Source of the DNA: Chrysomallon squamiferum
Lineage: Eukaryota > Animalia > Mollusca
Assembly (NCBI GenBank): GCA_012295275.1
Contig: CM022665.1
Coordinates: 25,668,001 to 25,732,000, forward strand
DNA length: 64,000 nt
Reading direction: 5' to 3'
The notes below the pieces were generated by a model. It did no database searches, was not told the DNA's origin, and was given only the letters and a program-made list of their open reading frames with translations. Positions 23,967-36,208 of this stretch are shown here, one piece after another. A program made the translations under genes and the position numbers. How positions within the stretch are numbered: the first letter of the stretch is position 1; every line of letters starts with the position of its first letter.

Positions 23967-25315
23967 TTACGCTGGGGAGGTGCCGCCTTTCTTCGCGCCC
24001 AGAATTAAAAGTATCCCTGCCACTGTAGCCAGGATCAACGCCACAATGGCAAAACCAAAAGACATCCCAAATTTTCCATACCAGTAATAGTCGTCGAATT
24101 TGACAGCGAAAATAATAACAGCCAGTAAATAACCCACAGCTGAAAAAGGAAAAAAGAAAACAAAATTATCTTGTCGTAGCAGTTGTAATTATAGGAGATT
24201 TAATGGTATTAGTAACGGTAATAGTAGAAGTGGTGGTGGCGGTAGTAGGAGTAGAAGTAGTGACAGTTGTAGTAATAGGAGAAGCAGTGTTATTAGTAAC
24301 GGGAATTTTAGTGATAGCAGTAACAGTAGCAGTAGTAATAGTTATAATAGTTGTTATGGTAGTAGTAGTGATGATGGTAGTAGAAGCAACAGAAGCAGCA
24401 GCAGCAGTAGTAGTAATAGTTGTAGTAGTAGCAGTAGCAGTAGCAGTAGAAGCAATGGTAATAGGTATGGTGAAAAGCAGTCGTTGCAACAGTTACGGAA
24501 GTGATAGCTGGGTTAGTTTTAGTAAAAGTAATAGTCGTAGTAGTAGAAACAGTGGTTGTAGTAGTAATAGTAGAGATAGAAGTAATAGTAGTAGAAGGAA
24601 AAGTAGTAGCAGAAGTAGTAGTAGTAGTAATAATAATCATAATGAAGAGAAGATGAAGGCAATAAAACAAATTCGTTCGGGACGTTATTTAGTCCTACTA
24701 CTCGAAGAAGAATAACTCAACAGAAAGGGTCCTCTCTAATTAATTTTTTTTCGAAACATTTAAACGCTGATGTAAATACAAACCTGCTACAAAGCAAACG
24801 ATGGCGTTGACAAAGCTCAAGTCCATACATTTTTTGGCGAAGATCTGCAACACGATGATCAGAAATGACACGTTAATTCCCACGAAGCCGAAAATGGCGA
24901 ACGCCTGTGTCGCAGCCAGCCAGTCTGAAGTAAAATTATATTATATAGCTGGTATTTTGCAGAAACGTAGAAAAAACAACAACAAATAAATAAATAAAAA
25001 TAAATGAATAAAAAATAAAACAGGCAAACAAACACACAAACAAGAAAATAAATAAATAAATAAACCTTTTTAAAATCTGTAAATCGCCTTACCGTTTCTG
25101 GTTCCATCATAGGCACCGCAGTTGATAAAACGATCTGAGTCAGAACACATTCTCCAAAGACCGTAGGTTGTATAAGTATCTGTATTTGTGATTCGTACTT
25201 TTCCCCATCCCGAAGTAGTGAAAGCGATCCAGCTACAAAACTGAGCCAGAAGTAAAATGATAAACGCTATTTTCACGAACAAGCCGGCTCCCATGAAACT
25301 ATCTATGACTCCCAT
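23967..25315 (-). CDS. PMP22/claudin-superfamily tetraspan protein, paralogue CL-2a (178 aa)
   Basis: Exons 25315-25093, 24924-24784, 24139-23967, phase-1 introns. GWG...YGLWRMC..C motif; ends AKKGGTSPA*. Confidence 0.9.
24170..24640. repeat. (AGT/AGC/AAT)n low-complexity tract in CL-2a intron 2 (counterpart at ~35040-35520)
   Basis: Degenerate trinucleotide repeats that generate spurious Thr-, Val- or Ser-rich ORFs. Confidence 0.85.
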
Positions 25316-25390
25316 GTCTACGCAGATTTCTTCAGCAGCCCAAGCAGAGGATGTTATGAATCACGTATAATTTATTTGCAAAGACTCGGC

Positions 25391-25417
25391 CTTTTTATAT
25401 ACCTGTGTTGCCACAAC
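25391..25417 (-). promoter_or_regulatory. TATA box plus GTTGTGGCAAC motif of CL-2a
   Basis: Minus-strand GTTGTGGCAAC (25417-25407) followed by TATATAAAAAG (25401-25391), ~76 bp upstream of the ATG. The same arrangement occurs at 36284-36310. Confidence 0.6.
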
Positions 25418-32397: not shown

Positions 32398-33153
32398 GAA
32401 TGAATGAATGAATGAATGAATGAATGAAAAAAATGAACGTGCTAATCACAGCAAGCTGTTGTGAAGCACGTCTACGACGGGCACGCTTTCTGACAGGTCA
32501 GCGGGCATGTCTGTCACAGAAAAGAGTTTTGGCTAAGGAACGAGAGTGGGTTCTCGTTACGATTGCAGGACACAAGGGAGTGTCCAGCATATCGGATCGT
32601 AAGGAGTCGGTTCCGATGTTTCGTAGACATTATCCGTTTCTTGTTGTTTCAGATACTTGTCTGGCTGGTTGAAGCTCTCCTAGTCATCACCAGGTCCGTG
32701 TTGGTTGCGTCCTGTTTGTTTGTTCTCTTCTCGGCTGCTGTTGATGTTTCCTTGTTCTTTTTGGCTGCTTTCTTCTGGTCCAACAATTCCAACTTTTTTT
32801 CTGTTTTTTTTTGTTTTGCCAATGGTCTTTTTATTGATTAAAAGGATGCTGTGAACACCTGTAATTTCAGATCGAGATAAAGATAAAAGATATATTGGTT
32901 ATTTAAGATACCGGAAAGTAAAAGACAAAAGAGGAACAAGAGGTAAAAAAGAAAAAAGAAAAGTAATAAAAGTAACAATAATACAAAAGCCTATAAATAA
33001 GAATTTAAGTCTAAATAAATAAATAAAATGGTGCAGTATCTTTTTAGTTTCTGAATTTCGCTCAGTTAGCACAATCCGTACGTGAGTATTCTTCACAGCT
33101 TCTCTTCAGAGCTTACACCATGTCAGGGTCGACCATCAGGGTCTGTTGTGAGA
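32398..33153 (-). mobile_element. Young non-LTR retroelement insertion (SINE or truncated LINE), 756 bp
   Basis: Absent from copy A (single ACCTGGAATT at 22460-22469). Flanked here by a perfect 10-bp direct repeat ACCTGGAATT (32388-32397, 33154-33163). (TTCA)n tail at the minus-strand 3' end, preceded by a stem-loop. Confidence 0.88.
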
Positions 33154-34833
33154 ACCTGGAATTATAAACAGATTTACTTTATAACGTGCATTTTTTTGTG
33201 AAGGCTGACTGTTCTTAAGCGAGTTTCACTTCCTAATAATGTAGTCGGGTAGCTGTTTATCTTCTCATTTACTAGCTGTGGTAACAGGATTGTGAATGAC
33301 GTATGACGTCTGAAATACAGATCATTATGTCTGCTATGAAGGGAGACGGGAGGTGACTGTTCAGACTCGTTTTCCTTCTAGATGGCTTTGACACAGACAA
33401 AAGAAATCTATAGGAATTGATTACGTTTTTATTGGCAGTGGTATTTGTTTGAAATGTTTTAATTATATAATATTAAAAGAACGACTTTTTAAAATTGTGT
33501 GTATGAGTGTGTGTGATGGATATTCAAATTGTGAAATATTTATTGAAATGAATAGATAGATGAGTTAATTATTTTCTAATTCCTTTTCCCATTCAGAACT
33601 TAAATTATAGATAAATTATAGATAAACATGCACTTGACAATCTTTGTCGTTAATTTTTTTTTTTTTTTTTTAAACTCGCAGATCAGAAACATTGTATTTG
33701 TCTTCTTCGTATAAATGTTGATTGTTTCAGCGGATAAAAAAAAAATACTTGTTTTATTTCCCATAATTATTATTATTATTATTGTTTTAATTTTACATCC
33801 TAGTTTATGATATGTTTTAAATATCTTTTATTTACTCATAATGAAAATTTTAACATGTTTGAAATGGTTCAACAATTTATAATGAAAATGAAAACTGTTG
33901 ATGCTTCATTATTTCTGATACTCTCTCTCTCTCTCTCTCTCTCTCTCTCTCTCTCTCTCTCTCTCTCTCTCTCTCTCTCTCTCTCTCTCTCTCTCTCTCT
34001 CTCTCTCTGGGTGTGCAGTTCTTTTAAAATTGTTGACAGTCTCTCTCTCTCTCTCTCTCTCTCTCTCTCTCTCTCTCTCTCTCTCTCTCTCTCTCTCTCT
34101 CTCTCTCTCTCTCTCTCTCTCTCTCTCTCTCTCTCTCTCTCTCTCTCTCTGGGTGTGCAGTTCTTTTAAAATTGTTGACAGTAAGATGAGGACTTATTAT
34201 GAGAATGGTCTGCTCATCGATTCACCACTACATACATTAATAAATGTGTGTGTAAAAACAACAAACTAACAATTTAGTCCAACTACCAATATAAAATTAT
34301 AATTATGATAAAAAACAAAACATATTTATCTATTAATTTTTTTATTCATGATAAAAAATGACATATTATGAATGTAAAAAAAAAAAAAAAATATAAAGAA
34401 AAAAAAATGTTACTGTTGTTATAGACAGGAATACATAACACGTCTTTGAAGTTGATCTGTCTTTGTCAGTATTCTCTTATTTCCGAGGAAGAAAAATGGA
34501 GAAAAAAAAAATGACTTGTTTTCATTTGTTTTGTTGATGATGGGAGGAAGCAAAGTTAATAGTAATTTTAATATTATATATATATAACATATATAATATT
34601 AAGAACGTACAAATGTGCTTTATGATATAATTGGGGAAAGCATCACAGACTGCTTCTAAAATGTATAACAAATAAATAAATAACTTATTTAAATCAATTT
34701 TAAAAATTTTAAAGTACAGTAAATAAATAAATAAATAAATAAATAAATACACTAAACTAGAACAGAAATAAAAGTCACTGAAATTATAAACTTAATTGGT
34801 TTCCAGTTCAGGTGCGGATCTTACGAGAACGAA

Positions 34834-36208
34834 TTACGCTGGAGAGGTGCCGCCTTTCTTCGCGCCCAGAATTAAAAGTATCCCTGCCACTGTAGCCAGG
34901 ATCAACGCCACAATGGCAAAACCAAAAGACATCCCAAATTTTCCATACCAGTAATAGTCGTCGAATTTGACAGCGAAAATAATAACAGCCAGTAAATAAC
35001 CCACAGCTGAAAAAGGAAAAAAGAAAACAAAATTATCTTGTCGTAGCAGTTGTAATTATAGGAGATTTAATGGTATTAGTAACGGTAATAGTAGAAGTGG
35101 TGGTGGTGGTGGTGGTAGTAGGAGTAGAAGTAGTGACAGTTGTAGTAACAGGAGAAGTAGTGTTATTAGTAACGGGAGTTTTAGTGATAGCAGTAACAGT
35201 AGCAGTAGTAATAGTTGTAATAGTTGTTATGGTAGTAGTGGTTATAGTATTAGTAGTTGTGATGGTAGTAGAAGCAACAGAAGCAGCAGTAATAATAGTT
35301 GTAGTAGTAGCAGTAGCAGTAGCAGTAGAAGCAATGGTAATAGGTATGGTGAAAAGCAGTCGTTGCAACAGTTATGGAAGTGATAGCTGGGTTAGTTTTA
35401 GTAAAAGTAATAGTCGTAGTAGTAGAAACAGTGGTTGTAGTAGTAATAGTAGAGGTAGAAGTAATAGTAGTAGAAGGAAAAGTAGTAGCAGAAGTAGTAG
35501 TAGTAGTAATAATAATCATAATGAAGAGAAGATGAAGGCAATAAAACAAATTCGTTCGGGACGTTATTTAGTCCTACTACTCGAAGAAGAATAACTCAAC
35601 AGAAAGGGTTTCCTCTCTAATTAATTTTTTTTCGAAACATTTAAACGCTGATGTAAATACAAACCTGCTACAAAGCAAACGATGGCGTTGACAAAGCTCA
35701 AGTCCATACATTTTTTGGCGAAGATCTGCAACACGATGATCAGAAATGACACGTTAATTCCCACGAAGCCGAAAATGGCGAATGCCTGTGTCGCAGCCAG
35801 CCAGTCTGAAGTAAAATTATATTATATAGCTGGTATTTTGCAGAAACGTAGAAAAAACAACAACAAATAAATAAATAAAAATAAATGAATAAAAAATAAA
35901 ACAGGCAAACAAACACACAAACAAGAAAATAAATAAATAAATAAACCTTTTTAAAATCTGTAAATCGCCTTACCGTTTCTGGTTCCATCATAGGCACCGC
36001 ATCTGTTAAAACCATTTGAGTCAGAACACATTCTCCAAAGACCGTAGGTTCTATAATAATATGGACTTGTGACTGAATCGCGAGTTAGTGTTTTTCCCCA
36101 TCCCGAAGTAGTGAAAGCGATCCAGCTACAAAACTGAGCTAGAAGTAAAATGATAAACGCTATTTTCACGAACAAGCCGGCTCCCATGAAACTATCTATG
36201 ACTCCCAT
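34834..36208 (-). CDS. PMP22/claudin-superfamily tetraspan protein, paralogue CL-2b (182 aa)
   Basis: Exons 36208-35974, 35805-35665, 35006-34834. The protein is identical to CL-2a outside extracellular loop 1. Confidence 0.9.

Follow-up and report, generated by a model that had tools for sequence, protein, structure and literature searches.

What process leaves two recently duplicated genes encoding the same protein everywhere except in one short exposed loop? The question is raised by CL-2a and CL-2b, two small genes of the PMP22/claudin superfamily in the snail Chrysomallon squamiferum, which lie in a stretch of 64,000 nt (CM022665.1, assembly GCA_012295275.1, 25,668,001–25,732,000; hereafter the window, whose positions are used throughout). 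The window is AT-rich (GC 29%), and its minus strand holds, from 18.7 to 41.7 kb, an array of small genes with three exons each: CL-4, CL-3, CL-2 and CL-1. Comparison of the window with itself revealed a tandem duplication of ~10.8 kb, in which 29708–38726 aligns with 18907–28737, with 153 substitutions in 6,616 aligned columns and a background divergence of 2.1%. The duplication carrying the two CL-2 genes is recent. CL-2a (23967–25315; exons 25315–25093, 24924–24784 and 24139–23967) encodes 178 amino acids and its duplicate CL-2b (34834–36208; exons 36208–35974, 35805–35665 and 35006–34834) encodes 182; both are intact, and CL-2 is the sole gene within the duplication that is intact in both copies.

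The coding differences between the two copies were concentrated in the predicted extracellular loop 1. A sequence-only reading of the window had reported that the copies share an identical 168-nt intron 1, that the three coding differences outside loop 1 are all synonymous, and that loop 1 itself has about 10 plus 5 substitutions and a 12-nt in-frame indel; our alignment reproduced each of these observations (identity of intron 1, P=0.028 uncorrected; silent differences CTG/CTA, GCG/GCA and TCC/TCT). The loop differences fall into two patches, read on the minus strand and separated by an identical spacer of 34 nt. Patch 1 lies at 25169–25198 in CL-2a (codons 40–49) and at 36050–36091 in CL-2b (codons 40–53, longer by 4 codons), and patch 2 at 25121–25135 (codons 61–65) and 36002–36016 (codons 65–69), respectively. 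With the best in-frame gap placement we counted 15 substitutions in 12 codons, 10 in patch 1 and 5 in patch 2, and every changed codon altered the amino acid, as had been claimed; among the 14 in-frame placements tried, the best five gave 0–1 silent changes and the poorer ones up to 6. The description of the copies as otherwise identical was correct for the protein and not for the DNA, given that substitutions were found in intron 2 (10/635), the 5′ flank (8/547) and the 3′ flank (10/655).

This concentration was extreme by every measure that we applied, although all P values from the window are generous because the loop region was chosen after the fact. The 78-nt loop was the most divergent 78-column segment in the 6,616 columns (14 substitutions in the nucleotide alignment; 9 in the runner-up), and the Poisson probability of at least 15 substitutions in 78 nt at the 2.1% background was 3e-10. 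The ratio of changing to silent substitutions was 15:0 in the loop versus 0:3 outside (Fisher P=0.0012), and none of the 351 non-silent sites outside the loop had changed, against an expectation of 7.5. Loop dN was 0.30 against a background of 0.022; with a divergence ~14-fold that of the neighbouring introns and flanks, relaxed constraint alone cannot produce the loop. An older neutral patch would be expected to show 0 silent changes among 15 with a probability of only 0.009–0.019. The sequence-only reading had also offered homogenising gene conversion everywhere except in the loop; this need not be invoked, as divergence in intron 2 and the flanks is ~1.5%, similar to that of the unit as a whole.

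We also assessed loop versions in other samples. Eleven of the 13 listed public runs, from four studies, contain part of this stretch, and the contigs (not raw reads) of four of them were compared over 35962–36315, their difference tables being decoded by hand with a codon map: X1 (DNA), X6, X9 (RNA) and X10, which is of unspecified kind and labelled as another organism. Three of the four (X1, X9 and X10) cover the loop exon and yielded five further loop versions, whereas X6 provided a CL-3 contig only and no CL-2 contig. Patch 1 of CL-2b matched a 92-nt X1 DNA contig without any difference. Patch 2, which reads DRFIN in CL-2a and NGFNR in CL-2b, appeared in X1 as DSFNN, NGFRS and DRFVS, in three contigs with depths of 4.6, 3.5 and 3.3. 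In X9, the CL-2a patch 1 (whose decoding needs one unlisted 1-base gap, placed in a T-run to keep the frame) was joined to NGFVS, and in X10 the CL-2a patch 1, with two more amino-acid changes, was joined to NGFDS. The consensus errors that had been named as a possible undoing of the pattern are thus opposed by an exact DNA match for one patch 1 and a spliced RNA contig for the other. Both X9 and X10 gave one contig each, placed on CL-2b, with intron 1 spliced out, confirming the gene model and expression; it is therefore supported that at least one CL-2 copy is expressed.

High diversity between samples, which had been predicted, was evident in these contigs. All seven patch-2 sequences from the window and the three runs differ in protein, the last residue of the patch resting on an unlisted difference at 36002 that was deduced from difference counts and the depth table, with the letter assumed to be that of copy A; the CL-2b letter at 36002 was matched in no contig and is unconfirmed. 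A third hypervariable site, not visible from the window copies alone, emerged at codon 60 of CL-2b (36029–36031, minus strand; codon 56 of CL-2a), between GLWR and the first cysteine. The window copies both have Met here, whereas the contigs have Ser (X9), Trp (X10) and Ile (one from X1), and a further X1 contig has Val or Leu, as judged from contig ends, making five residues. These unphased versions may be alleles or paralogues, and X1 may not be one animal. Searches for further CL-2 alleles with the exon-1 protein found none (0 matches among 13 candidates; 3 distant ones among 18; 12 among 7,997, none from this gene). The X10 contig departs from CL-2 exon 1 at codon 9 (36183) and continues 5′ in 112 other letters with an in-frame ATG that are absent from the window; this end may stem from another allele, from a chimeric contig or from an alternative first exon joined at a cryptic acceptor.

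When distinct variants from the window and the contigs were pooled, leaving out the CL-3 contigs (X1 and X6) and the divergent X10 5′ end, the loop had 26 changing variants to 1 silent and the remainder 0 to 4 (Fisher P=0.00016), the comparison outside the loop covering the exon 1 region in the contigs, and exons 2–3 in the window only. An older haplotype patch with a normal silent share had been raised as an alternative, and 1 silent variant in 27 is poorly compatible with it (P=0.002–0.007; 25:1 and P=0.003–0.009 without the codon-60 variant deduced from contig ends). Of the 13 variants seen in contigs only, 12 fell within the loop (P=9e-5). Given the 15:0 and 26:1 counts and the sample versions, we consider it likely that diversifying or balancing selection acts on CL-2 loop 1, as had been suggested for the exposed surface; the signal is real and stronger than the sequence-only reading had described.

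The patches also occurred in different combinations. The patch 1 of CL-2a was found with a DR-type patch 2 in the window CL-2a and with an NG-type in X9, and that of CL-2b with an NG-type in the window CL-2b and with a DR-type in X1 (link depth 2.3). Because each patch 1 type is thus found with both types of patch 2, recombination or conversion in the 34-nt spacer is indicated.

We then asked whether copies A and B might be two alleles joined in tandem by the assembly, which would make the loop polymorphism real and allelic rather than paralogous. The junction is taken from the assembly, and a divergence of 2.1% is within the range of molluscan alleles. However, the junction at 29708 cuts an exon (CL-1 exon 3) with only 2 nt of microhomology. 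Coverage of the shared flank in X1 is also 3.7-fold that of the patch-2 contigs, as would suit a pair of loci carrying two alleles apiece; should X1 derive from one diploid animal, this depth and its three patch-2 versions would require two loci. Identical flanks are not proven by the lone 672-nt contig upstream in X1, because contigs drop simple variants. We therefore give such an assembly artefact only a very slight chance.

What kind of protein carries this loop? Both CL-2 proteins show four main hydropathy peaks, and CL-1a, CL-2a, CL-2b and CL-4 all contain the loop-1 motif of the superfamily, W(X>8)GLWxxC(8-10X)C (PMC3879130), with cysteines 8–9 residues apart. Single exons scored under the Pfam cut-off, and all 10 full-length relatives scanned passed that of PF00822 or PF13903; with a profile built from 26 relatives, spliced CL-2a and CL-2b reached 210–214 bits, whereas none of 200 shuffles exceeded 9.6. 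One relative, P0009, was modelled with four long helices (pLDDT 86.9), and the top Foldseek matches of this model were claudin-19, claudin-15, TARP and MP20 (TM-score 0.65–0.73). Judged from this relative, a claudin fold is predicted for CL-2. The claudin-like identity proposed earlier is thus supported by motif and predicted fold; the sequence and fold matches to claudins and TARPs are about equally strong, and the CL-2 proteins are filed as PMP22/claudin-superfamily members and not as classic claudins. They end in TSPA, with a cytoplasmic tail of ~10 residues that has no PDZ-binding motif or evident signalling motif, and a PDZ-binding motif is also lacking in many invertebrate superfamily members (PMC3879130).

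A model of CL-2a exon 1 (a helix and three strands, pLDDT 71) assigns patch 1 to a predicted β1–β2 hairpin, codon 56 to the third strand and patch 2 to the loop that follows it, with pLDDT 53–67 in these parts. In claudins, V1 is the β1–β2 loop, and V2 lies between TM3 and β5 in the second extracellular segment (PMC6719960). The sequence-only reading, which had equated the two patches with V1 and V2 of the first extracellular segment (ECS1), was therefore right for patch 1; patch 2 instead corresponds to the predicted β3–β4 loop between the cysteines, and the true V2 is the same in CL-2a and CL-2b. A lead that codon 60 corresponds to a toxin-contact residue of claudin-4 was not confirmed, there being 0 matches to the residue names in the available text of PMC8909277 and PMC6998413.

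To place CL-2 among its relatives, we searched with a profile of the second exons of the array genes, which retrieved 25 relatives among 1.84 billion representatives. Of 10 relatives looked up, the 8 with species names were all gastropod proteins, the best coming from Gigantopelta aegis. Gigantopelta is a vent peltospirid. In a tree of 27 proteins, CL-4 was sister to G. aegis XP_041354545 (100/99), and CL-1a grouped with CL-2a and CL-2b (96/96). These relationships place the animal among gastropods near Gigantopelta. The other duplicated pair with a loop remnant in the window, CL-1a and CL-1b, differs by two amino-acid-changing bases in the loop-1 remnant, two in loop 2 and one silent base in exon 2, so that 4 of 5 changed bases are extracellular (P=0.024; the numbers are small and CL-1b is a pseudogene). 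A third change in the CL-1b remnant (Asp to Gly) was discarded as the deletion junction.

Seven close pairs of relatives were compared by counts of protein differences, without dN/dS. Loop 1 was enriched in the Mytilus galloprovincialis/edulis pair (XP_076098315 and CAG2189592, P0026/P0045; 11/30 in loop 1 versus 6/160 elsewhere), in a Littorina saxatilis pair (XP_070204723 and XP_070182983; 12/34 versus 8/169) and in the Patella caerulea/vulgata pair (12/36 versus 17/155). The Littorina pair (P0023/P0035) differs in loop 2 as well. We tentatively raise, as a possibility that we would not yet favour, that a molluscan claudin-like branch constitutes an undescribed polymorphic recognition or receptor-escape system, in which loop 1 is a surface of two hypervariable modules (the β1–β2 hairpin and the inter-cysteine loop), shuffled by recombination across the spacer; vent snails, periwinkles and mussels would each be subject to this regime independently.

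What could drive such selection? We propose, at roughly even confidence, that the loop variation of CL-2 is driven by escape: a pathogen, a virus or a toxin would dock on loop 1, a driver that we infer. An epithelial junction or adhesion job would fix the membrane core of the protein, while the outer hairpins of loop 1 would be bound by the microbe, virus or toxin; rare loop versions would escape binding, so that many versions could persist by negative frequency-dependent selection, and recombination or conversion in the spacer would mix the two patches. The recent duplication would have brought a second loop version onto the same chromosome, and CL-1 and CL-3, duplicated along with CL-2, would have decayed. 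In claudin-4, a single ECS1 residue (T45) determines binding of a bacterial toxin (PMC13253352), and claudin loops are targeted by viruses (PMC3879130). A tail of 10 residues offers little for signalling, which favours receptor escape.

Several observations weigh against this proposal or against the selection on which it builds. The sequence pattern cannot separate active recognition from escape, and the ligand or pathogen is putative. If both copies were expressed in one cell, an extra version would be an extra door for pathogens, which would fit recognition better. Mammalian CLDN1, a virus entry factor, is described as lacking positive selection (PMC5938362). Enrichment in loop 1 was found in only three of the seven relative pairs, and not in two Pecten comparisons nor in two pairs of one trio. 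The X1 contigs, with depths of 2.3–4.6, may contain errors, and simple variants outside the loop can be lost from contigs. The variants seen in contigs only, taken alone (11 changing to 1 silent), fail to beat neutrality (P=0.13–0.19), and the loops vary throughout the family (entropy ~3 bits), so that constraint there is low anyway.

The last two points would fit a history in which no diversifying selection acts: an unconstrained loop 1, the most variable part family-wide, would carry old haplotype patches or patches from unseen paralogues, with purifying selection elsewhere, and donors might lie beyond the window. However, an old or converted patch should bring silent changes with it, which the single silent variant in 27 does not bear out; several loop codons show three to five different residues across samples; and, when the window was compared with itself, exon 1 matched only one paralogue besides CL-2, namely CL-3a (70% identity). 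We regard this explanation as improbable.

Active recognition is the main rival to receptor escape, although we think it unlikely on balance. Here the loop would be a polymorphic identity tag or receptor, serving trans adhesion, sperm–egg matching or the capture of symbionts or pathogens, and more versions per animal would be advantageous. It predicts the same selection signal as escape and better explains the retention of two copies, given that both CL-2 genes are intact whereas CL-1b and both CL-3 copies are broken. V1 is involved in claudin trans-interactions (PMC6719960), superfamily members mediate homo- and heterotypic adhesion (PMC3879130), and clusters of polymorphic transmembrane immune genes with high extracellular diversity exist in snails (PMC10875847). 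Nevertheless, the short TSPA-ending tail offers no evident signalling or PDZ motif for such a role, and the two copies do not differ in the true V2, the second loop engaged in trans-interactions.

A physiological role was also considered, in which loop versions alter paracellular permeability to ions or metals and are kept by the spatially varying chemistry of vents. The charge of loop 1 influences paracellular selectivity in vertebrate claudins (PMC3879130), and the loop of CL-2b has a net charge of +2, compared with 0 for that of CL-2a. However, many of the changes are neutral or bulky (Met, Ile, Ser and Trp at one site) and are accompanied by a 4-residue indel, the versions differ in every sample, and the intertidal Mytilus and Littorina share the pattern; we see only a slim chance for such tuning.

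How does receptor escape by CL-2, if correct, compare with known systems? In its four hydrophobic helices, its W-GLW-C-C motif and the claudin fold of a close relative, CL-2 resembles the PMP22/EMP/MP20/claudin superfamily (PF00822 and PF13903; for example, XP_041354545 and Patella caerulea KAK6182768), and its array is matched by neighbouring locus tags among the Patella and Pecten members. It differs from this superfamily in the extreme within-species amino-acid diversity of loop 1. CL-2 shares its fold with the vertebrate claudins that serve as toxin or virus receptors (claudin-4 for Bacteroides fragilis toxin and Clostridium perfringens enterotoxin, claudin-1 for hepatitis C virus), in which ligand specificity can hang on single ECS1 residues (PMC13253352). 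However, identity to them is just ~20%, CLDN1 lacks positive selection, as cited above, and any CL-2 ligand is conjectural.

Among snails, the closest parallel is provided by Biomphalaria PTC1 and PTC2, clusters of membrane-protein genes with high extracellular diversity that has been read as pathogen-driven balancing selection (PMC10875847); CL-2, by contrast, is a small tetraspan claudin-like protein with diversity limited to ~20 codons. Claudin-type domain matches occur in five of the genes listed as diverse in Biomphalaria sudanica, all of them listed by window only, and their coding diversity of 0.0006–0.011 was not flagged (PMC10875847, supplementary file 9; 12 of 27 files covered). Bat CD81 is likewise a tetraspan surface protein with selected extracellular-loop sites at a virus interface (PMC5938362), although it belongs to an unrelated family and shows divergence between species, in contrast to the within-species polymorphism and duplication of CL-2. 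In the literature searched, which was mostly at abstract level and included few subscription journals, we found nothing on diversifying selection among claudin-like genes of molluscs. Hypervariable surface loops under selection are known, and a claudin-like protein used in this way, with shuffled loop modules and possible molluscan parallels, appears to be new.

Genes of the claudin superfamily tend to be regarded as conserved components of junctions. Nearly all of the within-species variation of CL-2 lies in ~20 codons of one exposed loop, which would point to a strong ongoing conflict or recognition process in this snail, and the exact residues named here constitute a natural allele series on an invariant scaffold that can be tested. 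The Mytilus and Littorina pairs suggest that the question is tractable in accessible shore and farmed molluscs.

The remaining genes of the array, all on the minus strand, surround the two CL-2 copies. Copy A of the duplicated unit (18907–29707) holds most of CL-1a, CL-2a and CL-3a, and copy B (29708–38726) holds the CL-1b remnant, CL-2b and exon 3 of CL-3b. CL-1a (18716–20197) is an open-frame paralogue of 217 amino acids up to the first stop, and its 3′ end is uncertain: it extends (18716–18830) ~30 mostly hydrophobic residues beyond the usual end of the family (TSP), with a CAA codon at the expected stop position, which may reflect a lost stop, a sequencing error or an unrecognised fourth exon. 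CL-1b (29708–30630) is a pseudogene truncated at both ends. CL-3 is broken in complementary ways: copy A keeps exons 1 and 2, with a stop in exon 1 (CL-3a, 28523–29067; exon 3 was not found in copy A), and copy B keeps exon 3 alone (CL-3b, 37546–37713). The stop in CL-3a was also found in X1 and X6 contigs and is therefore no assembly error. CL-4 (40158–41666) is an intact paralogue of 202 amino acids outside the duplication.

Some further features were noted in passing. Copy B has an insertion of ~750 nt (32398–33153), one end of which is ~90% like a ~115-nt insertion in copy A (28149–28264), inverted; it is probably a short mobile element. At 33919–34151, also in copy B, a GA microsatellite with ~30 nt of flank is locally doubled, by local duplication or an assembly slip. 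A piece of ~95 nt at 9075–9171, 10 kb from the array, resembles, at 88–91%, the part of CL-1 intron 1 adjoining the exon-1 donor and looks like the relic of an earlier copy. An open frame of 156 codons without a Pfam match lies at 10103–10570 on the minus strand, and the plus strand carries an ordinary neighbour, a gene of glycosyltransferase family 43, at 44673–47200.

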